From positions 1 through 64,000 of IMG/VR virus record IMGVR_UViG_3300025018_000138: 64,000 nucleotides of DNA. The stretch is one strand, 5' to 3'. Below, in pieces: positions 23,076 through 44,124 of this stretch (position 1 is its first letter; the number at the start of each line of letters is the position of its first letter). The notes beneath the pieces are model-generated. The model did not search any database, had not been told where the DNA came from, and worked only from the letters and a program-made list of their open reading frames with translations. The position numbers were made by a program, and so were the translations under genes. Source of the stretch: a virus (lineage: Duplodnaviria; Caudoviricetes).

Positions 23076-23104
23076 AATATACTTAAACAGACAATAAATG
23101 TCAA
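23076..23104 (-). promoter_or_regulatory. Promoter TTGACA-N17-TATATT
   Basis: Consensus match with 17-nt spacer. Confidence 0.65.
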
Positions 23105-23123
23105 TACGAAATTTTAAAAAATG

Positions 23124-23200
23124 TACCCACGACAAGATTCGAATCTTGTATGTATCCATTACACTTTCGACACGTTCGTAGCGTGAGGTGATACGTGGGC
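23124..23200 (-). tRNA. Non-canonical tRNA-Arg(ACG)-like gene, copy 1 (anticodon arm precedes D-like arm)
   Basis: GCCCACG/CGTGGGT acceptor; CACG-CTACGAA-CGTG anticodon arm; then GTGT-AATGGAT-ACAT; T arm ACAAG-ATTCGAAT-CTTGT. Confidence 0.75.
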
Positions 23201-23201
23201 A

Positions 23202-23237
23202 TATGTTTTTATCACCATTCCTCGTCCAATCGAGTCT
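23202..23237 (-). repeat. 36-bp exact repeat, copy 1 (copy 2 at 24464-24499)
   Basis: Minus strand AGACTCGATTGGACGAGGAATGGTGATAAAAACATA is identical at both sites. Confidence 0.9.
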
Positions 23238-23626: not shown

Positions 23627-23655
23627 AATATACAAACAAAAACATCAAAAGTCAA
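23627..23655 (-). promoter_or_regulatory. Promoter TTGACT-N17-TATATT
   Basis: Consensus match with 17-nt spacer. Confidence 0.65.
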
Positions 23656-23682
23656 CCCTTTTTATTAAAATTTTAAAAAATG

Positions 23683-23759
23683 TACCCACGACAAGATTCG
23701 AATCTTGTATGTATCCATTACACTTTCGACACGTTCGTAGCGTGAGGTGATACATGGGC
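23683..23759 (-). tRNA. Non-canonical tRNA-Arg(ACG)-like gene, copy 2
   Basis: Identical to copy 1 except C6>T, which gives a T-G pair in the acceptor stem. Confidence 0.75.
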
Positions 23760-24056
23760 ATATTAATTATTTTGTATCTGCATCTAATTGTTTTACTAAT
23801 TTGTAAAAAGTATCTTTATTAATTCCATGTGTTAACATTATCAATGCAGTATATTCATGTTTGTTGTACATATATTTATTATCAACAGCAAGTGTAGTAT
23901 TATTATGCTGTGTTTGTACTGATTGTATTAATGGATTTTCTATGTTAAATATTGTTTTCATATAGTGAATTATTAGTTGATTAAAAAAGAAACATATCAA
24001 ATTACTGCTTTACCTATCAATGATTAATATCAAGGTTCTGTACTTTCTTCTTATTT

Positions 24057-24177: not shown

Positions 24178-24197
24178 TAATAAGATATGTTTAACTG

Positions 24198-24269
24198 TAC
24201 TCAGTATTGGAATCGAACCAATATTAAAGGCTTAGAAGTCCCTTGTACTATCCATTGTACGAACTGAGC
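24198..24269 (-). tRNA. tRNA-Arg(TCT)
   Basis: GCTCAGT/ACTGAGT acceptor, loop CTTCTAA, T loop TTCGATT. Confidence 0.9.
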
Positions 24270-24341
24270 ATAAAAAGCAGTAACATAATATCATCACGAC
24301 ATGATGTTACTTATTCCTAATGATATAGGAATATAATCGAG

Positions 24342-24427
24342 CGGAAAGCACCATAGTTGAAATGGATGGCTTTGACACCACAATCTGTTTAGCAAACAGT
24401 TACAAGCACCTACTTGTTTTACTTTCC
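24342..24427 (-). tRNA. tRNA-Ser(GCT), atypical T arm
   Basis: GGAAAGT/GCTTTCC, loop TTGCTAA, long variable arm, T stem closes with T-A. Confidence 0.8.
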
Positions 24428-24463
24428 AATTAAAAACAGAAAGTCATTGGAAACTTTCATACC

Positions 24464-24499
24464 TATGTTTTTATCACCATTCCTCGTCCAATCGAGTCT
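24464..24499 (-). repeat. 36-bp exact repeat, copy 2
   Basis: Identical to 23202-23237. Confidence 0.9.
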
Positions 24500-24752
24500 T
24501 ATTTTAATAATGATAAATTATATTCATTTAGATATTGTTCAACATATTTTTTATCAAGTTTGATATTAACACTGACAATATGACCCGATGAATTATGTTT
24601 GTATCTATTAAATAATTCATCTGATTCTATATCGTGAAAAACATCAATAAATTCAAAATCCACATCATGTTGTTTCTTACTTTTATATGCAAGAAATTCT
24701 TTATATTCATCGACTGTTATATATGGCATAGTATTCCAAAAGTGATAATTTG

Positions 24753-24827
24753 TACATCATATCAGATTCGAACTGATACTACCAAGTTTCTAAGACTTGT
24801 GACTCCTACCGATTGGTCTAATGATGC
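24753..24827 (-). tRNA. tRNA-Leu(TAG), short variable region
   Basis: GCATCAT/ATGATGT, CAAGT-CTTAGAA-ACTTG, T loop TTCGAAT. Confidence 0.9.
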
Positions 24828-24832
24828 AAGTG

Positions 24833-24906
24833 TACTCTTGGACAGATTCGAACTGTCATTCAACAAATTTTAAGTCTGTTGGCGTTACCATTTAGCCTAC
24901 AAGAGC
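24833..24906 (-). tRNA. tRNA-Leu(TAA), short variable region
   Basis: GCTCTTG/CAAGAGT, ACAGA-CTTAAAA-TTTGT, T loop TTCGAAT. Confidence 0.9.
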
Positions 24907-25021
24907 ATTAAAGCGCTTATCACGAATCTCACGACATGATGATAAGCTTTCCATAAGATACTGAATATGTTTTAATATACATATGTTTTATTCTAATGTC
25001 AATATATCAACGAACTTTTTG

Positions 25022-25105
25022 AGGAAGATGTGGGATTTGAACCCACGGGACAAGATGCCCTTTAGTTTTCAGGACTAACGCAATAATCCACTCTGCCAAT
25101 CTTCC
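25022..25105 (-). tRNA. tRNA-Ser(TGA)
   Basis: GGAAGAT/ATCTTCC, TTAGT-CCTGAAA-ACTAA, long variable arm. Confidence 0.92.
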
Positions 25106-25343
25106 TTATTAAATACCATCGCCATCTAACATGTTAAGACGAACAGTTTCATCTTCACCGATTAGATAAATTCTATTTATGAATTCACCATTTTCATCCG
25201 TTTTACCATTCCAACCTTCTGGGTGTGAATGAATTTCAACACAATATTCCCAACATAATGTTTGGACTTTACTTATAAATTCTTTCATTTTAGGTGATGT
25301 GTTATTTTTCATATGTATTTGTGTTTGTGTTATGTTTTCAATG

Positions 25344-25415
25344 TTGCCCGAACAAGATTCGAACTTGTACACCATAATTCAAAGTTATGTTTCCTGCCAA
25401 TTAGAATATCGAGCA
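25344..25415 (-). tRNA. tRNA-Gln(TTG)
   Basis: TGCTCGA/TCGGGCA, CATAA-CTTTGAA-TTATG. Confidence 0.92.
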
Positions 25416-25428
25416 ATGTATTTGTATG

Positions 25429-25503
25429 TAGCGTAGGGGGGATTTGAACCCCCAGTCTCCTGTTCCCAAAACAGGCGGAATAACCGAATTATCCTACTAC
25501 ACT
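25429..25503 (-). tRNA. tRNA-Pro(TGG)
   Basis: AGTGTAG/CTACGCT, CCTGT-TTTGGGA-ACAGG, GGGGG-TTCAAAT-CCCCC. Confidence 0.92.
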
Positions 25504-25545
25504 ATTTATTATAAAATCAATTGTTATTTAAATAAATCAAGGAAC

Positions 25546-25581
25546 AAAAAAAGTCATGCACCTTTTCGAGATACATGACTT
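25546..25581 (-). terminator. Intrinsic terminator of leader A
   Basis: AAGTCATGTATC-TCGAAAAG-GTGCATGACTT followed by a U-run. Confidence 0.8.
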
Positions 25582-25612
25582 AAAATCTATTTAAAGTATA
25601 CACATATCTCTC

Positions 25613-25681
25613 TCAGCACAACAACGGTTGTGAATGTCTACGTAGACTTAAAGATGATAATATGTATGTTTTGTTTTCCAT
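25613..25681 (-). CDS. Putative leader peptide A, MENKTYILSSLSLRRHSQPLLC
   Basis: 22-codon ORF between a promoter-like tataat and the terminator, upstream of the Pro/Gln/Ser/Leu/Arg tRNA array. Confidence 0.7.
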   Translation of the reverse strand: MENKTYILSSLSLRRHSQPLLC

Positions 25682-26489
25682 GAATAGTAATTATAGTATT
25701 TTTTTATTTAAATCAATTTTTTCTTAAAAAAAATTAAAAATCTTTTTGGATGTCAATGTAATCGTCTCTATCCACATCAAGCAAGTCTTCTTCAAACTCA
25801 CGATTTAGAAAGGATTTAAACCTTTCTACTAAAGCTTTTTTAGTTGCTTTAACAGCATCTTCTTCCGCATTTACAAAATCAAAGGAATCGGGGATTGATG
25901 TTGTAGTTTCGATATTGGCAGAGTCAACTGTTTTAATAGTATCTTTTACTTTTAAAAGACCTTTTGCAGTCCATGTAATTTCAAATTTTGCTGATTTAAT
26001 CATAGTTTTTTTGTAATTTAGGGGATTGTGTTTTATTTTTGAATAGCAGGTGCAATTTGTATTGCTTCGATTAATTGTTCTAAGAATTTTTCATCAAATA
26101 CATCTTTAAGAGTAGTGATTCCTAATTTTTCTAAAATGTAAAATTCCATATGCGATGCCAATGCAGAATCTACAATTTGATTTAACAAATGTGCATTTTC
26201 TTGTGTAGGTTGATATCCTAACAGTGATGCTTTACGCATTAACGTTGCAACAACAATCTGTCTGATGTCATTAAACTCTTGCTTCATTTTAGGAATAGGA
26301 GCAAGTTTTGAGGATGGTTGGGTAATGGAAGATTCTTCAACTGTATCTATATCTGTATCTGTATCTGTATCATCGTCCGAAATGACGAGAGGAATTTGGT
26401 TTTCGGATACATCTTCGTTGATAGAATCTTCGTTGATAGAATCTAGGTCTAGTAATTTCATGTGTAAGTTTTTAAGTGTTTATAAAAGT

Positions 26490-27290
26490 TTAATATAAAT
26501 TAAAAATACGTGCGATTGCAATAGCAGATAAAACATCTGCACCATATTTTTCTAATTGAAATACAACATTCTTAATATACTGAGCTTTTTCGAAAAAGTC
26601 AACAACAATAACAACTTTTTTATTTTTTATTTTAGATATTTGTTTTTCATCTATCGTTAATAAACCGTTTAAAAATGATTGTTGTTTAGCAGGTATATTC
26701 ATATCTGCAAAACTATAATCTCGGTCTTCACGATTTAATGTTTGTATTTTTTTATTTAGCATATCTTTAACATCAGATGGTGTATTTTTCATTAATGATA
26801 AGTCACTACCATCAACAACATTCTCTTTAGTAAAGATATTATCATATCGAGCGGATACACCATTAGTTAGTTTTAAGAAGAATCTGTTGTAAATATCAGT
26901 ATCATTATTAATACCAACTGCTACTACATCTTCTTCTAAAACTCCATTTTTAGTTAAGAATTTCTTCATTTCAGTAGCTGATAAATCTACCCAATTCCTA
27001 ATGTATTCATTATTCAATGATTGTGCTTTCATATTGTTAGCAAATTCATTTGTTGATTTATATTTAGGTGGTAGTTCATCTTTTTTAATTTTATAAGTAT
27101 AAAACACAGTAAGCATTTCGGATTTAATAACACCAATATGTGGGACAAATTCTTTAGAATTTTGTTTACCGAGATTGGTCATATTCGTTGTATTATTTCC
27201 TGCATCAATATAAATTGTCCCATCTTGTAATGTATCGATAGGACTGGTTGATTTTGGAGATTCTAATGGTTTTTGTGTTTTATCTGCCAT
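26490..27290 (-). CDS. Hypothetical protein, possible degenerate PRTase-like fold
   Basis: VVIVVDFF...VLSAIAIARI resembles the PRPP-binding loop region; weak. Confidence 0.35.
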   Translation of the reverse strand: MADKTQKPLESPKSTSPIDTLQDGTIYIDAGNNTTNMTNLGKQNSKEFVPHIGVIKSEMLTVFYTYKIKKDELPPKYKSTNEFANNMKAQSLNNEYIRNWVDLSATEMKKFLTKNGVLEEDVVAVGINNDTDIYNRFFLKLTNGVSARYDNIFTKENVVDGSDLSLMKNTPSDVKDMLNKKIQTLNREDRDYSFADMNIPAKQQSFLNGLLTIDEKQISKIKNKKVVIVVDFFEKAQYIKNVVFQLEKYGADVLSAIAIARIFNLY

Positions 27291-27659
27291 GTTGTTTTAT
27301 CTACTATTTCGTTGGTGTTTGCGTCTATTACTTTTCAGTTTAAACTTATTCAAAGAGTGTTCATTCCATTCTACACGGATTATTTTATCTTTACTTGATA
27401 CTTCAGCATGTCTTTTTAGACCTTCGGAAATATTATAAGTAATGATACCCATCCATTCATCAAAAGTTACTGAATTTTTACTTTTAATATATACTCTATC
27501 CAACTTTTTTTTCATTTTATCTGATTGCATAATATATTTTTGACGTAGAGCAACTAAATCTACATCTTTAAGTTCTTCTTCTGTTTTTCCGCTTGTAAAT
27601 AAGCGCATATATTGATTAGGTGTTAGCATGTTAAGCCTTTATTGTTAATTGTTAAGTGT

Positions 27660-28058
27660 TTAAATTAATTCTTCATCTTCATCTTCTTCATCAAATAAAT
27701 CTTCATCTTCCTCTTCTTCATCAGACCAATCTGCTAATCTTGTATACTTATATTTAAATTTAATATCTGTATTTCTTAGCGTTTGCCAAAATTGAGAACC
27801 ATGTGATGGTGCATTTAATAATGTAATGAATACTCGAATGGGTATTCTAAAATATTGGTATTCAGAACCGAATGTAGCTCTTTCACCCTTGGTTTTATTA
27901 TCACCTTTGAATCTAATTCGTAATAATTTTTCTGTTGGTAAATATAACAACGAGTGGATATTAGAAGATTCAACTTCTACATATTTCCCATATAGTAATT
28001 TCACATTTCTATATGTTACTCTAACATTTACCGCTTCTAATAATAGGTCTTTTAACAT
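27660..28058 (-). CDS. KTSC-domain protein with acidic tail
   Basis: VESSNIHSLLY...LRIRF...YQYFRIP...LNAPSHGSQF. Confidence 0.7.
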   Translation of the reverse strand: MLKDLLLEAVNVRVTYRNVKLLYGKYVEVESSNIHSLLYLPTEKLLRIRFKGDNKTKGERATFGSEYQYFRIPIRVFITLLNAPSHGSQFWQTLRNTDIKFKYKYTRLADWSDEEEEDEDLFDEEDEDEELI

Positions 28059-28073
28059 ATTATTAATTATTAG

Positions 28074-28718
28074 TTATTTCGAAAAATTGATAAATCGATT
28101 TATATTATATGTCGATTCTTCTATTTCAGATAGAATTGGAATAACATCATTTGTATGTTCACAAACTAATGCATCCAAATTATATTGTTTTTTTAATAAC
28201 ATGGGTGAATAATTTTTGTTATGTTCAGCACGTATTAAAATTTTAGTAGTTGAATATACAGATTCGATTAAATTTTTCTGATAATCATCAATAATAATAT
28301 TTGCCTTATATAATCCTTTACTATCACTAATCAGATTTAAACGATTTGCAATATCTTCATTAAAATGAAATTTTAACCATTCGTATTTTTGTTTATAAAT
28401 AGATTTATATTTTTCTTTTTTTGTTCCCGAACAACTAGATAATATTTGAAAATCAAATATATCATTTGAATTAATTAAATATGTTATCAACTCTGTTGCA
28501 CCTTTTTTTATTGGAACATCATAAAAAAATCCATCATAATCAAAATATTTAAAAATTTTATGACCATAAATTGAATGCTTATGTGCATCCCAAGTTTTAA
28601 ATTTAATAATTTCACCCGTTTCTAAATAATGAAGACGTTTCCAATGCGAACTTAATGAATTTAAAACATCATCTAAATCTACATTAATAGTAATTTTGTC
28701 GTTGTTCAATTTATACAT
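28074..28718 (-). CDS. 5'(3')-deoxyribonucleotidase (NT5C-type HAD)
   Basis: VDLDDVL, KYEWLKFHF, IIIDD motifs. Confidence 0.8.
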   Translation of the reverse strand: MYKLNNDKITINVDLDDVLNSLSSHWKRLHYLETGEIIKFKTWDAHKHSIYGHKIFKYFDYDGFFYDVPIKKGATELITYLINSNDIFDFQILSSCSGTKKEKYKSIYKQKYEWLKFHFNEDIANRLNLISDSKGLYKANIIIDDYQKNLIESVYSTTKILIRAEHNKNYSPMLLKKQYNLDALVCEHTNDVIPILSEIEESTYNINRFINFSK

Positions 28719-29738
28719 AGTTATATTCTATCAATTTTAAATATATTAATATAATATTTATGAATAAAATAATCAAGATACGATTTAAAATTAAACAATA
28801 AAGTTAATGTGTATGTAGTATTAGTTTTTTTTACCAATAAATGTGTAATTAAGACATCATTGGTTTCTTCTTGAATCACTAAAAAATCATTTGTATTTAT
28901 ATGTGTAATAATTTTTAAATCATCTACTACGTATGGGCGTATTAATATCGAACCTTTGGTTAATACTGTAGGACAAATATTCATTATCGTTTTAGTTTTA
29001 TAAAAAGTATTCCAAAAACTATTTGCATTGAATAGATATTTTTCCTTTTGAATCTCCGTTAATGTCATACTAATGCTTGTCAAATGTTTAAAAGCATTAG
29101 TATTTTTAATCGGTAGTAAAGGAATAATATTTTTTTTTAAAAAATCAGATGAATATTTCATTATTACTTAGTTAGTGTTACAGAATTCAATTTATCAATT
29201 GGTACTTTAAATTTTTTAAATTTAGAAATTGGTAAAAGGTCTTCTATCTTATTTTTTATGATAGTCTTATCTTTTGAATTAACAGGTTTATATTTTGCTT
29301 CTACAATAGTTTTATTTTCTAATTCGATACCCGAGAAGTATAAAAACTCATCTTTTTCTTCAAGACCATGTGTTAACACTTTGAAAGGGGATTCTTCTCT
29401 TGCTTTCTCATGTTTGACACTATCGAATGATACTAATTTTGATTCATAATTAGTAATCAAATCTTTAATGATAGTAAATATTTCATCAGATGTGGTACCT
29501 TCTTTTAAAACTTTAGATTCGTTTAATCTTTTTGCAGTTGCTAAACGTAAATCTCGATTGATTCCTTTTAACTTAGCTAAACTTTCTTTAATCAGTTCTT
29601 CATAGTCCCAATCCAATGATAATTCTATATTGTATGTTCCACTTGACAATATCTTTTTACCATCGGCTTCTTTTTTATAATTTAAAATTGATACATGTTT
29701 GTATCCATCTTTTATTTGTTGTACTAATTCTGCTTTTG

Positions 29739-32787: not shown

Positions 32788-33429
32788 ATGATACTAATCG
32801 AACAACAGATTGATTCACAATCATTAGCTATGTTACTAAAATGTCGAACTCAATTGATTAATTTAATTAATTCATTCAAACCTTATTGTAATAATTATTT
32901 TTATATTTATGGTGGGTTTATACGAGATTTAATATCTGGGTTTAAACCAGTTGATATTGATATTAATATTGCCGACAGTAATGATAAAAATCGTGTTATT
33001 AAGTACCTATCCAAAACACATGATATTTCATATGAATCAGCTTGGGTAACTCGTTACAAGTCAAAAATGGGTTTACCAAAAACAATGTATGATATTGCAT
33101 CCAATTTTAAAACACCAACGGAATTTATATCAAATTCCGATTTTTCAAATAATGCTATATTATTTGATTCCAATTATGATTTGTTTTGTTTGGACTCGAC
33201 TATATATGCAAATACGAATAGAAAATTAATTTTAAAACCAATTGAATCTAATAGTCCTATGATTTTAGCATATAGAGCAGGTAAACTAATTCAAAAAGGG
33301 TTTGTATATAAATCCGAAAATCCTATAGACTTGATTAAAGATATAGAATATCAATTTGAACTATATACAAACCCAATCGATATTTATAAAGTTAATTTAT
33401 CCATTAACGATAGAAATGTATCACGTTGA
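32788..33429 (+). CDS. Class II nucleotidyltransferase head-domain protein
   Basis: YIYGGFIRDL, VDIDI, SDFSNNAI resemble CCA/poly(A) polymerase motifs. Confidence 0.6.
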   Translation: MILIEQQIDSQSLAMLLKCRTQLINLINSFKPYCNNYFYIYGGFIRDLISGFKPVDIDINIADSNDKNRVIKYLSKTHDISYESAWVTRYKSKMGLPKTMYDIASNFKTPTEFISNSDFSNNAILFDSNYDLFCLDSTIYANTNRKLILKPIESNSPMILAYRAGKLIQKGFVYKSENPIDLIKDIEYQFELYTNPIDIYKVNLSINDRNVSR

Positions 33430-34439
33430 AAATTTCCAATTTCAGCACCTACTAATGTTTTAGGATAATCAACTCCTAATGCTTTGTACAACAATTGTAC
33501 AATACTTACGAAAGATTCATCCAATTTACATAACATGTTAACATTGTTCATAACAACTCGTCTATTTTTCCAAATAAATAATTTTGACTCGTTTATATCA
33601 TCTACATAACTATCAATCATAATATAGTTACCATAAAATTTAGATACTTGAGCAACTTCTTTTTTGATTGGTAATGAATCAATGAATGAATCATCAAACA
33701 TACTAAATAAAAACGCAAATGAAGCATCAACATCATGGTCAATACACTCTTGAACTTCATCAATTCCCAACGATACGTCATCGATGAAACCTACATTATA
33801 TAATAATACTTTTGGGATGAAATTAAATGTAGTAATACATTTAGCAAATTCATCCAAGATTCTTTCCATTGATAATACTTTATCCAATTTAACAGTATCA
33901 AGAATTTTTTCAATTGCCAATTTAGTACTTGCATCAAATGTCAAACCATATTTAACATAGAATCTAAAGGCTCTAATCACCCGTAAATAATCTTCTTCAA
34001 ATCTGTGATACGGATTACCAACAGTTTTTAAAATATTATTTTCCAAATCTGATTGTCCATCAAACCAATCTAATATTTTTGTTCCATCAAAACCCATCGC
34101 ATTTATTGTAAAATCTCTACGTTGAGCATCTTCATAAAATGAATTGGTGAATTCTACTGTTGCACGTCTACCATCAGTACCCACATCTTTTCTAAATGTA
34201 GTATGTTCTACATGAACCCCGTGAATTATAAATGTGACCGTTCCATGCTCTATACCAGTATCATATGATGAAAAAGGTAATAAATCTTTAATTTCCAATG
34301 GTGTATATGCTGATGCTACATCGATATCATGTGCTTCACGATTGAGTAACATATCCCTTACACAACCACCAACAGCAATTACTTCGGGTGCATATTGATG
34401 AATGGCATGTAAAATTAATTCGATATTCGGGGTTGTCAT
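33384..34439 (-). CDS. cca: tRNA nucleotidyltransferase (CCA-adding enzyme)
   Basis: VGGCVRD, HDIDV, GIEHGTV, EDAQRRDFTINAM, EDYLRVIRAFRF. Confidence 0.9.
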   Translation of the reverse strand: MTTPNIELILHAIHQYAPEVIAVGGCVRDMLLNREAHDIDVASAYTPLEIKDLLPFSSYDTGIEHGTVTFIIHGVHVEHTTFRKDVGTDGRRATVEFTNSFYEDAQRRDFTINAMGFDGTKILDWFDGQSDLENNILKTVGNPYHRFEEDYLRVIRAFRFYVKYGLTFDASTKLAIEKILDTVKLDKVLSMERILDEFAKCITTFNFIPKVLLYNVGFIDDVSLGIDEVQECIDHDVDASFAFLFSMFDDSFIDSLPIKKEVAQVSKFYGNYIMIDSYVDDINESKLFIWKNRRVVMNNVNMLCKLDESFVSIVQLLYKALGVDYPKTLVGAEIGNFQRDTFLSLMDKLTL

Positions 34440-34696: not shown

Positions 34697-35242
34697 TTAA
34701 AAGAATAGATACGTCTTCCATTCATCAGGTATCTCCCCCGAATAAGATTTCATTAACATTAACCAATGTGGTCTATAAGGTTGTGGAATAGGTCTACCCC
34801 ATTCTTCATCAGTCAAACAATCTTTCTCATTATTGCATTTTTTACATGCAGTAACTAAATTGTCCCATGAATCTTTTCCACCCCTCGCTTTTGGTATAAC
34901 ATGGTCTAATGTTAATTCTTTTCTATTTTTATCGAACCCACAATAAACACACGCATGGTTATCACGTTTCAAAATGTTATCACGATTTAATGGAACCGCT
35001 TTGTTATGAACATTAACCCATTTATCGATTAATATAATTGAGGGTTTTTTGTATTGTAAATTGGGATTGATTGTTTTAAAAAACACATCATGTTCATATA
35101 CTATACGTGCATTACCTTTATACCAAATAGCAAAGGCACGTTCTGTTCGTATGATTTGCATAGGCATATATGCGGAATTAAGAACCAAACATTTATTGAC
35201 CATTTCGGTTGAAGTGGTTAAGTTCTTTACATTAGTTACCAT
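34697..35242 (-). CDS. HNH endonuclease (McrA-like)
   Basis: CVYCG, TLDHVIPKARGG, NLVTACKKCNNEK. Confidence 0.92.
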   Translation of the reverse strand: MVTNVKNLTTSTEMVNKCLVLNSAYMPMQIIRTERAFAIWYKGNARIVYEHDVFFKTINPNLQYKKPSIILIDKWVNVHNKAVPLNRDNILKRDNHACVYCGFDKNRKELTLDHVIPKARGGKDSWDNLVTACKKCNNEKDCLTDEEWGRPIPQPYRPHWLMLMKSYSGEIPDEWKTYLFF

Positions 35243-36556: not shown

Positions 36557-38230
36557 TTAAATAACAATCGCTTTAATATCGTTGAGTACTGCTTTTGGGT
36601 CAAACTCAACTTTTTTAATCAGTTCATAGATATCTTGTGTATATCCTTCGAGAGAAAACACACGTGGGTGTTTACTATTAAACATTTCTGTTGGATAACC
36701 ACAAACATTTATACTATAAACATAGGTATTACCATTCAGTTTTTCATATTCTTTAAAAGAATTTATTACCGAATCTTTACCTTGCATATCACTAATGATA
36801 AATACTCTATCATATCGTCCTTTTAATGATGGAAAGATAGTATCAAACGCAGTACCATAACCAACAGACCCTTGTTTTGATGCAATTACTTTTTTAATAG
36901 TATTTACAGAATCCAAAGGATTTATATTAATAGGTTGAGTATAGTTTGCAAAATGATATACATCTGCATTTGTAGCTTTCGCTAAAGTTGATGCAACCAA
37001 TGATGCTTTTTCGATTGCTGATTTACTACCTTGTTTTTTATTTGCTAAAGTAATCAAACTTGTCATAGAACCTGAGCTATCTAATACTACAGCAGTTTTA
37101 CCTGTGAAGTAATCTTCTAAATTTGGTATTGATAATTCATATGCTTTATTTAATGCAGTTAATATTGAACCTAAATCACTTGGGCTATGTTCTTGTAACA
37201 GAAACTCCAATGCCAAATCTATTTGGTGTGGAAACACTAATGATTTTTTGATAAATTCTGGTTCAATTAGTAAAGCAGATACTTTTTCTTTTAATGTACT
37301 ATGTCCAAGTTTAATGATATTGTTTAAGTTTCTTAACAATGCCAAGTACCCAATTTTTTTAGTATCAATTAGCTCTACAAAATTTTCACCCTTTAAATCA
37401 TCCAATTCAACTTTAGCTTGCTCAACACTTAATTCACCTGATGCCACTTTTGCAGAAACATCTTGACCCGATTTGGTGTTTTTATCTTCAACAGTATTGA
37501 ACTGTTTTAATAAACCTAACGTTAATGCAAACAATGTTGGGATAGTTACTTCTCCATCATCACTAATATTTCTTGTTAGTTTATGTGCTTGTTCTTCATA
37601 TAATACATGCCCTTTGACTGCTTTAAGTAATTTAGCTTTAGGTACAGATACTACTCCTTGAATTTCGGTTTCCCGTGGGTGTACTAACTTGACAATATTC
37701 AATAAAGAAATACTAGAAGTTTTCAATTGGTATTTAGCCAATTGGTATTTATCAGCATTTTCAATCACAGATTTGAATCCACGTTTGATAGCATTTGATA
37801 ATTTCTTACCGTTATTTAATGCCATATATGCACCTGCGATTTCCATCATATCATCTAAACGATATACAACTCCACCGCGATTTTCACCACGAACACGTTT
37901 AGTGAAGAAATGAGTTCCTAATTCGGTACCACTAAGATATCTAGCTAATACTGCTGATGCAAAATGTGTTGTTGCACGTTGTCCTACGACTGAACGTACA
38001 TAAACAATTGCTTTGGCTACCAATTCTTTATCACCAATTTTATCAATTAATGATAATATTCGTGCTTCTCTTGTTTCACTTGTTTCATAAAATGTATTAT
38101 CTACACCTGTAGCAAGAATTCCTACTAATTCTACGATTGGGTCTTTTGCAAAACCGTTTCCGTTTTCATATGTAGTTACATTTGGTTCTGCTTTAGTAGC
38201 AGATACTTGGTGTGAGTTATATTTTCCCAT
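36557..38230 (-). CDS. rsr: TROVE-domain Ro60/Rsr RNA-binding protein with C-terminal vWA domain
   Basis: TFYET, YQLAKY, YLALLRNLNNI, VVLDSSGSM MIDAS, FIISDMQ. Confidence 0.9.
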   Translation of the reverse strand: MGKYNSHQVSATKAEPNVTTYENGNGFAKDPIVELVGILATGVDNTFYETSETREARILSLIDKIGDKELVAKAIVYVRSVVGQRATTHFASAVLARYLSGTELGTHFFTKRVRGENRGGVVYRLDDMMEIAGAYMALNNGKKLSNAIKRGFKSVIENADKYQLAKYQLKTSSISLLNIVKLVHPRETEIQGVVSVPKAKLLKAVKGHVLYEEQAHKLTRNISDDGEVTIPTLFALTLGLLKQFNTVEDKNTKSGQDVSAKVASGELSVEQAKVELDDLKGENFVELIDTKKIGYLALLRNLNNIIKLGHSTLKEKVSALLIEPEFIKKSLVFPHQIDLALEFLLQEHSPSDLGSILTALNKAYELSIPNLEDYFTGKTAVVLDSSGSMTSLITLANKKQGSKSAIEKASLVASTLAKATNADVYHFANYTQPININPLDSVNTIKKVIASKQGSVGYGTAFDTIFPSLKGRYDRVFIISDMQGKDSVINSFKEYEKLNGNTYVYSINVCGYPTEMFNSKHPRVFSLEGYTQDIYELIKKVEFDPKAVLNDIKAIVI

Positions 38231-39699: not shown

Positions 39700-39826
39700 T
39701 AAAGAAATATCAAAACAGAATTTTTAGCGCTCTACCATTGAGCTACATGTCCCCATAAGGGACATGGTTGGACTCGAACCAACAACCACTCGTTTCAATA
39801 CGATGAAACTGTTTTTGTCACTATTA
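39700..39826 (-). ncRNA. yrlA: Y-RNA-like ncRNA 2, YrlA-type (permuted tRNA module)
   Basis: Order: stem, T arm GTTGG-TTCGAGT-CCAAC, loop-closed acceptor CATGTCCC/GGGACATG, D arm GCTC-AATGGTA-GAGC, stem; matches published YrlA topology; near the Ro60 gene. Confidence 0.85.
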
Positions 39827-39916: not shown

Positions 39917-39989
39917 CGATGTTGATGGGATTCAAACCCACATAATCTTCGCTGACAACGAAGTGCATTAGTCATTATGCTACAACATC
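39917..39989 (-). tRNA. tRNA-Asp(GTC), T loop TTTGAAT
   Basis: GATGTTG/CAACATC, CTTCG-TTGTCAG-CGAAG. Confidence 0.88.
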
Positions 39990-40625
39990 ATTATGTTCAT
40001 GTTTTTCGTAGAATTTTATCCATTTTCTTATAGAATTATCTGAAACTCCATATTTTCTACCTGTAGCACTAAATCCTAATGATTTTGTGTCTTGTATTAA
40101 TATTTCATATGGTGGTCTGTTTCTTTTTCTATCTTTTTTTAATATTTCAATATTTATTTTTTTTTCTTTGAATGGGTTATTATTTTCATAATCATTTAAA
40201 TAATTTATTTTAAATTTTTCTTCATTTACTCTAATTGCTGTTTTATTTTCAATATCAGATGTAGATAAGAAAAAAATACCACCGCTTTTTACTACAATAA
40301 TAATATAATCTATTTTATTTTTATCAAAATATTTTCGTGTATTATTATATTTATTACCACCGCTAGTTGCAAGTGTTACTATCCAATTATTATTTTTATA
40401 AACACTTGTTGATTTGACTTGAACTTTTAGTAAGCAATTATCTTTTTCAATAATAAAATCATACGATTGATTTTCGTTTAATGGTTTAGATACTGTGTAT
40501 CCTTCTTTTATTAAGAAAGCTAAAGCGTATGCTTCACCAACATTACCTTTATCTTTTTGGGTTTTACAATTTTCAAATATATTCATGATATTAATTATAA
40601 TATATTTTATATTTTTGAACCCCAA
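39975..40625 (-). CDS. Free-standing PD-(D/E)XK endonuclease (group I intron-associated type) with C-terminal HTH
   Basis: KGNVGEAYA, QSYDFIIEK, KVQVKS; HTH GVSDNSIRKW. Confidence 0.8.
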   Translation of the reverse strand: MGFKNIKYIIINIMNIFENCKTQKDKGNVGEAYALAFLIKEGYTVSKPLNENQSYDFIIEKDNCLLKVQVKSTSVYKNNNWIVTLATSGGNKYNNTRKYFDKNKIDYIIIVVKSGGIFFLSTSDIENKTAIRVNEEKFKINYLNDYENNNPFKEKKINIEILKKDRKRNRPPYEILIQDTKSLGFSATGRKYGVSDNSIRKWIKFYEKHEHNDVVA

Positions 40626-41148: not shown

Positions 41149-41270
41149 AAGGAGAAATATAAAAAGTGTGTTCCTCTTACGAGGTCGAGTGGAATTGAAC
41201 CACTGAAGTTTATTTTCAAGATAAATGCCCAACCATTGAGCTACGATGTAACACTTTTAAACGCTACCTT
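41149..41270 (-). ncRNA. Y-RNA-like ncRNA 5 enclosing unpermuted D, anticodon(TGA) and T arms
   Basis: Family stem AAAAGTGT/ACACTTTT; GCTC-AATGGTT-GGGC; TTTAT-CTTGAAA-ATAAA; AGTGG-TTCAATT-CCACT; only 3 bp of acceptor, then CCTC-GTAA-GAGG. Confidence 0.7.
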
Positions 41271-41275
41271 TTTTG

Positions 41276-41348
41276 AGCTTTCATTGGGAATCGAACCCAC
41301 TTCCTCGCTTTACAAGAGCGAACATCATCCAATAAATGTTTTGAAAGC
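41276..41348 (-). tRNA. tRNA-Thr(TGT)
   Basis: GCTTTCA/TGAAAGC, TCGCT-CTTGTAA-AGCGA. Confidence 0.9.
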
Positions 41349-41752
41349 TATTTTCTAGTTGTTCTAGAAGATTTTCTATTATTTATATTTTTGTACGTTT
41401 TGGTTAAAGAGTGACAATTCGGACATAATAATCTTAGATTTTCTCGCAAATTATTTTTAGCATCTCCATCTATATGGTCAATCTCTAATGGTATATTACC
41501 CGTAAATTCATTTATTTGTGACCAACCACATAATGAACATTTATTATCATTTTCTTCTAATAAAAATTTTCTTATCCAATTAGGAATGGTCAATCCATTA
41601 CCACGTAGATAATTTTTACCATTTAACCACATATTAATACGTTGATTCATTTGAAATTCTTGTTGACATTTATTATTACAAAAAATGTTATTATTAACAA
41701 TTTCATTATTACAAAATTTACAAGTTTTTTCCTTTTTTTCTCTTTTTCTCAT
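41348..41752 (-). CDS. Free-standing HNH endonuclease
   Basis: CSLCGW, LEIDHIDGD, NLRLLCPNCHS. Confidence 0.9.
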   Translation of the reverse strand: MRKREKKEKTCKFCNNEIVNNNIFCNNKCQQEFQMNQRINMWLNGKNYLRGNGLTIPNWIRKFLLEENDNKCSLCGWSQINEFTGNIPLEIDHIDGDAKNNLRENLRLLCPNCHSLTKTYKNINNRKSSRTTRK

Positions 41753-42509: not shown

Positions 42510-42555
42510 GATTATAAGATATGAAGTTATTTATTAAATATCAAGTGTTATAAAT

Positions 42556-42590
42556 AAAAAAGTCCAAATTTTTTTAGGGTTTGGACTTTT
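42556..42590 (-). terminator. Intrinsic terminator of leader B
   Basis: AAAAGTCCAAA-CCCTAAAAAAA-TTTGGACTTTT followed by further U residues. Confidence 0.8.
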
Positions 42591-42625
42591 ACAACTAATA
42601 ATCTGCGATACCTCAACCAAACCTA

Positions 42626-42709
42626 TTAGATATTCACCCCCTTCACAAAACCATAATGGTTGGTTGAATCGGTGTTATTATCCCAAATAAATGTTGTAGT
42701 TGTTTTCAT
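42626..42709 (-). CDS. Putative leader peptide B, MKTTTTFIWDNNTDSTNHYGFVKGVNI
   Basis: 27-codon ORF after the same aaaaaaatactataattacta context as leader A, followed by an antiterminator-compatible segment and a terminator. Confidence 0.7.
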   Translation of the reverse strand: MKTTTTFIWDNNTDSTNHYGFVKGVNI

Positions 42710-42718
42710 GATTAGTAA

Positions 42719-43585
42719 TTATAGTATTTTTTTATTAAAATCAAAAAAATCTTCAAAATTTTCAAAAATAATTTCTTTTTTAATATCATCATATACAATA
42801 AACTCAGTTGGATACATAAATAATGAAGTATCAGACATTATTAATGAAGGATTTAAATAATATGGTGAATGTAATGGGAGACCATGTATATTACTAGTAT
42901 GCCCGAATATTTGTATAATATTCTTATTTGTCGCAGTAGGAACAGTAATTTCTGATGGTCTCAGCCAAAAAATTCCTCCACACGATTTATATCCACCCGA
43001 TATATATCCAATGTCAAATAACGATTTAACTTCCGAATTTCTATTACCACTTGATAATACATATAGATACATATCATTTGTTAATGGTTTTAATGTTTCA
43101 TTAATATCATCGATAGTAATTTCTTCAAATGGTATATGTTTAGTATTAGGGAGTTGTTTAAATATATCCCCATCTAATCCTGCATGAGTACATAAAAGAT
43201 TATCGATTGAATGATAAAATTTTAAAATCTTTTTATCCATCATTTTTTCATAATATGGATAAAACGAAAATCCTGCACCTGCACTATACCCAGAACATTG
43301 AAATGGATTTTCCACATGTGGTTTAATCATATATTGTAAATCGTGATTACCGATTAGATATGTCATCTTTTCGGGTTCATATTCATACATCATAGTTTTT
43401 AATAACTCTTGTTGCTTTTTTCTACCAAACTCAGGGTTATGATTATTCCCCCAAGTCACTTGTCTATTATCTACATAATCGCCTAAAAATACTACTTTAT
43501 AGTCATCAGTTGATTTTATAAATTTATTAACTTTGTTAAATAAATTTATATTACCGTGTAAATCACCAAATATTATATGTTTCAT
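42719..43585 (-). CDS. Calcineurin-like metallophosphoesterase
   Basis: GDLHG, FLGDYVD, LIGNHD, THAG, IFGHT. Confidence 0.9.
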   Translation of the reverse strand: MKHIIFGDLHGNINLFNKVNKFIKSTDDYKVVFLGDYVDNRQVTWGNNHNPEFGRKKQQELLKTMMYEYEPEKMTYLIGNHDLQYMIKPHVENPFQCSGYSAGAGFSFYPYYEKMMDKKILKFYHSIDNLLCTHAGLDGDIFKQLPNTKHIPFEEITIDDINETLKPLTNDMYLYVLSSGNRNSEVKSLFDIGYISGGYKSCGGIFWLRPSEITVPTATNKNIIQIFGHTSNIHGLPLHSPYYLNPSLIMSDTSLFMYPTEFIVYDDIKKEIIFENFEDFFDFNKKIL

Positions 43586-44124
43586 TATTTTTTACTTATA
43601 TCAGTTTGATAGTATACTTTTCCGTGATGAAAAGTTTCTATATAGTCAATAGCTTTAAATATCAATAGTTTCCTTTCATCTTCGGTTGTTCGGGAAAACA
43701 ATAATACCATATTATCATATATGACAAATTTTTTCATGTAGTTATTAAGTTTACCCAATTTTCTGAGTAAATCTTCTTGTTTACTTACACGCATTCTATC
43801 CAATATTGCATACCGCATGTGTTCTTCAATCATCATCAATACATCACGTTTGATGTTAATTGGTATGAATTTTTTAGCATATTTTAATGATGCTTTTTCA
43901 TGTCCAAATGCAGTAGGAGTTCCATCTTCCTTATATTTCAAAGTATCAATTTTACCAAAATCGTGAAATAATGCCGTGTACAATAGTTCATCGGGTTCAT
44001 TATTTTCTAATGCTTGACCCAATACTAATAGAGTATGGGTTAATACATCACCTTCGGGATGATAATCCTTACGTTGGGGAGTATTCTGTAATTGTTTGAG
44101 TAAGTTTGTTAAGTCCATAATCAA
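43585..44124 (-). CDS. HD-domain protein (related to the HD domain of multifunctional CCA enzymes)
   Basis: HPEGDVLTHT, LFHDFGK, GHE, EHM. Confidence 0.8.
   Translation of the reverse strand: MIMDLTNLLKQLQNTPQRKDYHPEGDVLTHTLLVLGQALENNEPDELLYTALFHDFGKIDTLKYKEDGTPTAFGHEKASLKYAKKFIPINIKRDVLMMIEEHMRYAILDRMRVSKQEDLLRKLGKLNNYMKKFVIYDNMVLLFSRTTEDERKLLIFKAIDYIETFHHGKVYYQTDISKK

Follow-up and report, generated by a model that had tools for sequence, protein, structure and literature searches.

Here we describe leader A, a 22-codon open reading frame (ORF) that stands ahead of a block of tRNA genes in a virus of the Caudoviricetes (Duplodnaviria; IMG/VR virus record IMGVR_UViG_3300025018_000138), and which we believe is probably the ribosome-mediated leader-peptide transcription attenuator that gates this block. 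Since leader A is written almost wholly in codons read by the tRNAs downstream of it, it is probably a switch for those tRNAs in the style of the trp operon. The record is 74.8 kb in length, has a G+C content of ~28% and is estimated to be ~36% complete; the window, by which we mean the whole stretch of DNA that was analysed, is its first 64 kb. Nearly every gene of the record lies on the minus strand, and ARAGORN called 25 tRNA genes in three minus-strand groups. Reading along that strand, the stop of an 89-codon gene at 25734 is followed by a 52-nt element that we term the 5' element, the leader A ORF, a 31-nt spacer, an intrinsic terminator, a further 43 nt and then tRNA-Pro, which starts at 25503 (Table 1).

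The attenuator had been proposed from the letters of the sequence alone, and the 22-codon ORF named in that original prediction, together with the 14 codons quoted from it, matches the sequence exactly. Codons 8-21 read Leu-Ser-Ser-Leu-Ser-Leu-Arg-Arg-His-Ser-Gln-Pro-Leu-Leu. When compared with every ATG-initiated ORF of 12-60 codons that the 74.8-kb record offers in any of its six frames (774 in all), leader A ranked first for Leu, Ser, Arg, Gln and Pro codons in a 14-codon window, with 13/14 against 10 for the runner-up. Under strict wobble rules it contains a cognate codon for all seven anticodons of the block, a coverage reached by only two of the 774 ORFs, the other of which lies within a tRNA gene. 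Codons of this set occupy 13/21 positions in the open frame, and 2/21 and 3/21 in the two other frames; given this concentration in the open frame, the signal is one of reading frame and not of base composition. The block itself had been credited with eight tRNAs. Six of these are solid (Pro-TGG, Gln-TTG, Ser-TGA, Leu-TAA, Leu-TAG and Arg-TCT) and Ser-GCT is a sub-threshold candidate, but Arg-ACG was rejected, no such gene being called by ARAGORN or Rfam or under a relaxed threshold. Because the block has no Arg-ACG gene, the leader codon CGT is without a strictly cognate phage tRNA.

The terminator that follows leader A has a 7-T tract at 25552-25546 and a folding energy of -15.4 kcal/mol; no other terminator-like hairpin on the gene strand of the 74.8-kb record is as strong, and it is also stronger than it had originally been described. 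A pairing that had been pointed out after the stop codon is likewise present: GAGATATGTG (25610-25601) pairs with CATGTATCTC in the 5' arm of the terminator through 10 pairs, two of which are G-U, and we found that the pairing is extended by four more (ACUU with AAGU). The full leader A RNA folds at -37.9 kcal/mol (z = -3.84), and its minimum-energy fold combines an intact terminator with the 1:2 pairing, in which a strand within the ORF, region 1, pairs with region 2, the 5' strand of the antiterminator. To represent nascent RNA, the transcript was folded up to the terminator loop, with the ribosome modelled as a 30-nt mask around the A-site. Such folding gave an antiterminator hairpin of -11.6 kcal/mol between 25610-25594 and 25581-25568, which was retained with the mask at codons 8-18, weakened at codon 20 and abolished when the A-site was placed on the stop codon. 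As modelled, therefore, the folds of leader A follow a trp-like logic of mutually exclusive 1:2, 2:3 and 3:4 pairings. A T-box riboswitch or a known Rfam leader was rejected as an identity for the element, as a search of 22000-44000 with Rfam models at E<=1 returned no T-box and no leader family.

Based on these observations, we propose the following model for leader A. Transcription would begin at the conserved 5' element, with ribosomes translating the 22-codon leader as it emerges. A ribosome that reaches the stop codon smoothly would cover region 2, the 13-bp terminator would form and transcription would end before tRNA-Pro. If a charged tRNA were scarce, the ribosome would instead stall at a Leu, Ser, Arg, Gln or Pro codon (codons 8 to ~19), leaving region 2 free to pair with the 5' arm of the terminator. 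Formation of this antiterminator would permit read-through into the genes of those same tRNAs, and the supply of seven tRNA species would thereby come under a common negative feedback. We infer the translation of leader A, its start site, the read-through and the cause of the shortage, whether this is poor supply by the host, starvation or a host defence that cleaves tRNAs; 'depletion' of tRNAs, for example by such a defence, is likewise the signal that we infer.

The 5' element ties leader A to a second cassette in the same record. Approximately 45 nt of the element, including the ATG, recur as a near-exact copy at 42744-42700, before an ORF that we term leader B, and nowhere else in the record. 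This conserved and duplicated 5' element is a promoter candidate, and if its TATAAT is a -10 element then the leader A mRNA would be leaderless or almost so. A Shine-Dalgarno-like word precedes only 10/63 long ORFs of the phage, and almost none in its relatives; since this phage and its relatives mostly lack such words, the absence of one before the leader ATG is not evidence against translation. Their scarcity suggests a host that does not rely on them, possibly a member of the Bacteroidota. Behind the shared head, leader B is a different ORF, followed by a weaker terminator. The second tRNA block, which opens with tRNA-Ala, comprises 13 species (Ala, Phe, His, Thr, Ile, Gly, Asp, Asn, Glu, Trp, Val, Lys and Arg), and of the residues of leader B after Met, 24/26 belong to the amino-acid set of this block (p 3e-4), with an anticodon coverage of 10/13 (rank 19/774); only one residue falls in the Leu/Ser/Arg/Gln/Pro set. 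Codons for Ala, Glu and Arg, which are missing from leader B, occur in the 51-codon ORF that lies between it and the second block. Leaders A and B have a common promoter-like head and complementary bodies, each fitting its own tRNA block. The 1:2, 2:3 and 3:4 layout is repeated at leader B, where a post-stop GGUUUGG faces CCAAACC of the terminator in a pairing that is weak and not significant.

The original prediction had also proposed that the codon content of such leaders should track the content of the arrays across phages, and at the level of families this holds among distant relatives. We retrieved 67 large-phage loci through a Ro60-like protein encoded next to the tRNA arrays of the record (43-52% identity), most of which carry tRNA arrays, and applied one fixed pipeline to all of them. 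Terminators of <= -7 kcal/mol were accepted if they lay no more than 300 nt upstream of a tRNA, and for each of them the longest ATG-ORF of 10-60 codons ending <=70 nt away was kept. This returned 25 distinct small ORFs. In locus L005 (relatives L029 and L057), an array for Cys, Gln, Phe, Leu, Pro, Tyr and Glu is preceded by a leader rich in those residues; the second cassette of L027 has a leader made of the residues of its Ser, Thr, Cys, His, Leu, Asp, Met, Glu and Val array; and leaders match their arrays likewise in the cases of Pro/Trp/Gln/Lys/Tyr/Asn/Phe/Gly and Lys/Gly/Trp/Asp/Asn/Val/Met/His. In a 10-by-10 matrix of leaders against arrays, in which three poorly matching families were included, the mean z was 2.44 on the diagonal and -0.2 off it, and 0/50,000 permutations of the pairing reached the observed diagonal sum. 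With all 16 families combined by Fisher's method, clear negatives such as a lipoprotein-like ORF among them, p was 4e-9; it was 2.5e-6 without this window and 1.6e-4 when a possibly homologous family was dropped as well. The effect is again confined to the frame, with in-set codons making up 56% of leader codons in the open frame of the ten families pooled, and 31% and 34% in the other frames. Where arrays reach 19-24 tRNAs, the preceding leaders are 44-49 residues long and use every one of the 20 amino acids; 19-20 kinds of amino acid occur in their best 30-residue windows, a diversity reached by 0.1-0.7% of background ORFs.

The relatives also bear on how such leaders might act. In several of them only 9-36 nt separate the end of the terminator from the first tRNA, a gap that leaves no room for a promoter, and those tRNAs would therefore be reachable only by read-through. 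In many, the 3' arm of the terminator is copied within the last 10-25 nt of the ORF. In several relatives such copies, of 8-12 nt, are highly significant (0/300 shuffles in some) and are placed where a terminating ribosome would cover them; between lineages, the copy in the ORF changes in step with the stem (CGGGG, CAGGG and CAGGA). The arms were compared sequence by sequence, the terminators being shifted by one column between lineages in alignment A1. As a separate observation, many relatives, including L020, L022, L024, L026, L030, L036, L041, L043 and others, encode a tRNA with the anticodon CTA, which ARAGORN labels 'Pyl'. From its anticodon, this tRNA is likely an amber suppressor, and its recurrence hints at recoding of TAG in part of the phage group.

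Close relatives of the record were scarce. A blastn search against GenBank phages gave matches to tRNA genes only, and no phage close to the record. IMG/VR yielded zero relatives when searched with the two proteins that flank leader A and zero matches to the leader A 5' element, a pattern search with back-translated leader A found zero matches, and the 3' end of tRNA-Pro had zero matches in metagenomes. A protein search gave 97% identity for one neighbour protein, and a scan of metagenomes recovered one contig of 4,073 nt, L070, that is 92.1% identical to 25501-29401 of the window. From the 5' element through the hairpin, L070 has three differences (~98% identity), compared with 90-95% identity in the three genes upstream and 87% in the spacer, the least conserved part of the cassette; an equal degree of conservation is seen in only 7% of the 166-nt windows of the alignment. 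One of the differences lies in the 52 nt of the 5' element. The sole change in the ORF affects CAT (His), the only codon of the core outside the set, which becomes CCT (Pro) and brings the core to 14/14, and the sole change in the stem turns a U-G pair into U-A and so keeps the pair. One change in L070 removes the terminal pair of the antiterminator.

The leader-peptide attenuator is supported on the sequence level by the codon match, the terminator, the alternative hairpin and the relatives. A number of observations nevertheless weigh against it. The statistics of the alternative folds at leader A are only modest: the antiterminator is better than 94.5-98.8% of shuffled or genomic controls (p 0.012-0.055), the 1:2 fold has p 0.064 against shuffles, and when the whole leader was searched for a duplex partner of this arm of the terminator, p was 0.21 for leader A, with no significant result for leader B either. 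The sensor codons at ~20-21 abut region 2, and a stall there would not release it. Within the ORF, CGT has no cognate phage tRNA, and the His, Cys, Tyr and N-terminal codons fall outside the set. Inside the tRNA block, at 25002-24974, lies the best sigma-70-like site of the region (TTGACA-17-TATATT, 11/12 positions), and the distal tRNAs may therefore be independent of the leader. Homology to L070 ends exactly at the 5' end of tRNA-Pro (L070:1-230, minus strand); what follows is an ORF unrelated to the window, preceded by a TTGACT-17-TATATT site, and the contig runs out 193 nt later with no tRNA called. No PHROG matches the fragment of this ORF in L070, and the record contains no homologue of it. 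That the break falls at the edge of a tRNA gene suggests a gene insertion or an array swap in L070. Among the distant relatives, the cassette is missing ahead of some arrays, and the tracking of arrays by leaders is imperfect at a fine scale, for example in L029, where the leader keeps Gln, Phe and Pro codons although the locus lacks those tRNAs.

Some of these points would fit a reading in which the cassette is an independent mini transcription unit, composed of a promoter, a gene for a small peptide or small RNA and a terminator, with the tRNAs transcribed from promoters in the spacer or inside the block and the codon match devoid of regulatory meaning. We consider this unlikely. It would account for the promoter-like words past the terminator, for the strong sigma-70-like site inside the block, for the L070 cassette, which precedes a different ORF with its own TTGACT-17-TATATT and not tRNA-Pro, and for the conservation of the cassette as a unit, as would be seen for a small gene. 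An independent promoter past the terminator had in fact been raised as a caveat from the outset, and the TTGATT and TATAAT-like words on which that caveat was based are present, but no canonical sigma-70 site fits them. The words are mis-spaced for sigma-70, a sigma-70 scan found no canonical site in the spacer able to start upstream of tRNA-Pro (the promoter rules of the host may differ), and a canonical sigma-70 promoter in the spacer was accordingly rejected; the scan counted as many sites in the sequence as in shuffled sequence. Nor would a promoter be expected from the weak conservation of the spacer in L070, or find room in those relatives where the first tRNA follows so closely on the terminator. 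Above all, a mini transcription unit leaves unexplained why its ORF should top all 774 for the amino acids of the very next block, and in frame only, why the sister cassette should fit the other block, and why the unrelated leaders of the relatives should fit their own arrays.

A second alternative accepts that leader A is a translated sensor ORF and supposes that it acts by another route, such as protection by ribosomes from Rho or RNases or processing of the precursor, with the terminator serving as a constitutive partial stop. The contrast between the strong codon match and the modest antiterminator statistics at leader A speaks for it, as do the weak alternative pairing at leader B and the lack of a significant terminator-arm partner in some relatives with matched leaders. 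We nonetheless hold it to be quite improbable, as the geometry of leader A suits the classical model and several relatives carry the highly significant copies of the terminator 3' arm beneath the footprint of the terminating ribosome. Finally, it is very improbable indeed that leader A is no more than a fortuitous ORF within the 3' untranslated region of the preceding operon, for which the hairpin would simply serve as terminator: there is no terminator between the upstream 89-codon gene and leader A, and many short ORFs arise in AT-rich DNA, but chance would have to provide at once the top rank, the rare anticodon coverage, the frame specificity, a duplicated 5' element specific to both leaders and recurrence in relatives.

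Leader-peptide attenuators are exemplified by trpL, hisL, leuL and pheL, and by the multivalent thrL and ilvL, the latter of the ilvGMEDA operon. Like the trp-type leaders, leader A combines a short ORF rich in regulatory codons with a terminator before the regulated genes, and it is predicted to form exclusive 1:2, 2:3 and 3:4 pairings in which a ribosome that has reached the stop codon keeps the antiterminator from forming. Unlike them, it is encoded by a phage and precedes genes for tRNAs and not for enzymes. Leader A samples five amino acids and seven anticodons, mostly with one to five codons each, whereas trp-type leaders have runs of a single codon; it also has no Shine-Dalgarno sequence, its mRNA may be leaderless and it has no sequence homology to the trp-type leaders. 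In E. coli, the pheM leader controls pheST, which encodes phenylalanyl-tRNA synthetase, by attenuation. Leader A resembles pheM in that attenuation would act on a gene of the translation apparatus and feed back on the supply of charged tRNA, but pheM senses one amino acid and regulates a synthetase and not tRNAs. T-box elements bind uncharged tRNA directly, need no ORF and have a conserved T-box sequence; as proposed for leader A, they read the status of tRNA and choose between terminator and antiterminator. To our knowledge, leader-peptide attenuation is known for amino-acid biosynthesis and synthetase genes, and not for tRNA genes.

A full-text literature search found no account of attenuation of tRNA genes, the nearest printed case being the trn operon of Anabaena PCC 7120, a long tRNA array that is induced by translational stress (PMC8421152). 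This operon is controlled at the level of the promoter, through direct repeats and the repressor TrcR (PMC8421152, PMC10272220). It resembles the block behind leader A in being an extra tRNA array with tRNA-repair genes nearby, and the Anabaena array is silent until translation is impaired. In contrast to leader A, attenuation, a leader and a terminator go unmentioned for it in PMC8421152. In a preprint on mycobacteria, polycysteine short ORFs are presented as leaderless attenuators (bioRxiv 10.1101/834739). As described there, these are similar to leader A in being short and apparently leaderless and in having a codon content that serves as the sensor for downstream genes; they differ in that one amino acid is sensed, the genes controlled are Cys-related protein genes and the ORFs are cellular and not of phage origin.

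The tRNA arrays of the record are interspersed with further genes (Table 1). The TROVE/Ro60-like gene, together with a YrlA match that falls below the gathering score, may represent a phage Ro/Y-RNA pair. One neighbour has a poly(A) polymerase head domain, which is found also in tRNA CCA-adding enzymes, and the genes within and around the arrays suggest tRNA repair functions alongside mobile endonuclease genes. Given the neighbouring Ro60-like, poly(A)-polymerase-head, phosphatase/HD and endonuclease genes, leader A appears to sit in a module for tRNA supply and repair of a large phage.

Within the block behind leader A, the internal TTGACA-17-TATATT site is followed by an ORF of 20 codons with a high content of Leu, Ser and Arg, which runs through a hairpin into tRNA-Leu (24892-25002, minus strand); judged by its sequence, this segment may represent a mini-leader or a promoter inside the block. 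The 13-mer CATCATGTCGTGA is common to the loops of two hairpins (24929-24941 and 24294-24306, minus strand) that directly precede tRNA-Leu(TAA) and tRNA-Arg(TCT), and these hairpins may be processing or partial-stop signals within the block. An exact repeat of 34 nt (24465-24498 and 23203-23236, minus strand) occurs immediately upstream of the Ser-GCT candidate and again upstream of one tRNA-like element. The latter belongs to an element of ~110 nt present in two near-identical copies (23650-23760 and 23090-23200, minus strand), which ends in a T-arm and acceptor strand resembling those of a tRNA and then a T-tract; ARAGORN called no tRNA in either copy, even when introns were allowed. In the second block, the gap between tRNA-Thr and tRNA-Ile contains a truncated tRNA-like sequence (41185-41246, minus strand; 44.5 bits with the Rfam tRNA model, model positions 5-66), followed by a hairpin. 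No tRNA-Tyr was found in the record.

Table 1. Positions of leader A, its sister cassette, the tRNA block behind leader A and neighbouring genes, numbered along the window.
Feature	Position	Strand	Remarks
5' element	25682-25733	minus	52 nt, A+T-rich: TTGATT, 15-nt spacer, TATAAT (25695-25690), 8 nt, ATG
Leader A ORF	25681-25613	minus	22 codons and TGA; 110 nt before tRNA-Pro, same strand
Region 1	25649-25667	minus	strand within the ORF, codons 5-11; pairs with region 2 in full-length minimum-energy fold
Region 2	25594-25610	minus	antiterminator 5' strand (predicted); begins 2 nt past the stop codon
Intrinsic terminator	25581-25546	minus	13-bp stem; 5' arm 25581-25569, loop 25568-25564 (5 nt), 3' arm 25563-25551
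Spacer between terminator and tRNA-Pro	25504-25545	minus	TTGATT...TATAAT-like words, 21 or 1 nt apart
tRNA block	24197-25503	minus	seven entries with candidate Ser-GCT; two small ORFs in between
tRNA-Pro-TGG	25503-25428	minus	ARAGORN and Rfam; head of block
tRNA-Gln-TTG	25415-25343	minus	ARAGORN and Rfam
tRNA-Ser-TGA	25105-25021	minus	ARAGORN and Rfam
tRNA-Leu-TAA	24906-24832	minus	ARAGORN and Rfam
tRNA-Leu-TAG	24827-24752	minus	ARAGORN and Rfam
Candidate tRNA-Ser-GCT	24427-24341	minus	relaxed ARAGORN threshold only; long variable arm, atypical T-arm
tRNA-Arg-TCT	24269-24197	minus	ARAGORN and Rfam
Leader B cassette	42548-42744	minus	same 5' element as leader A, different ORF, weak terminator
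Leader B ORF	42709-42626	minus	27 codons
Leader B terminator	42588-42560	minus	weak
51-codon ORF	42509-42354	minus	between leader B and second tRNA block; no terminator of its own
TROVE/Ro60-like protein	36557-38230	minus	adjoins tRNA arrays; common to the 67 large-phage loci
YrlA (Y RNA-like) match	39709-39815	minus	43 bits, Rfam gathering score 69; between tRNA-Glu and tRNA-Asn
Poly(A) polymerase head domain protein, two HNH endonucleases, PD-(D/E)XK endonuclease, metallophosphatase and HD-domain pair	33384-34439, 34697-35242, 39975-40625, 41348-41752, 42719-44124	minus	within and around the arrays

It is an open question what tRNA arrays do for the phages that carry them and how they are controlled, and the question has been sharpened by the discovery of host defences that cleave tRNAs and of phage tRNAs able to rescue infection. 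A leader matched in its codons to the array would make the question directly testable, as such a leader would name the shortages that the phage monitors. If our model is correct, the phage would read the decoding capacity of the cell codon by codon, with direct feedback on the supply of tRNA, and the switch could double as an automatic reply to tRNA-cleaving defences of the host. Leader A would further represent a compact, programmable sensor for the availability of chosen tRNAs. For large phages in general we regard the matter as evenly balanced: many of them may gate each tRNA block by a multivalent attenuator that lists the tRNAs of the block in its codons, and would in this way switch on only those sets that have run short.

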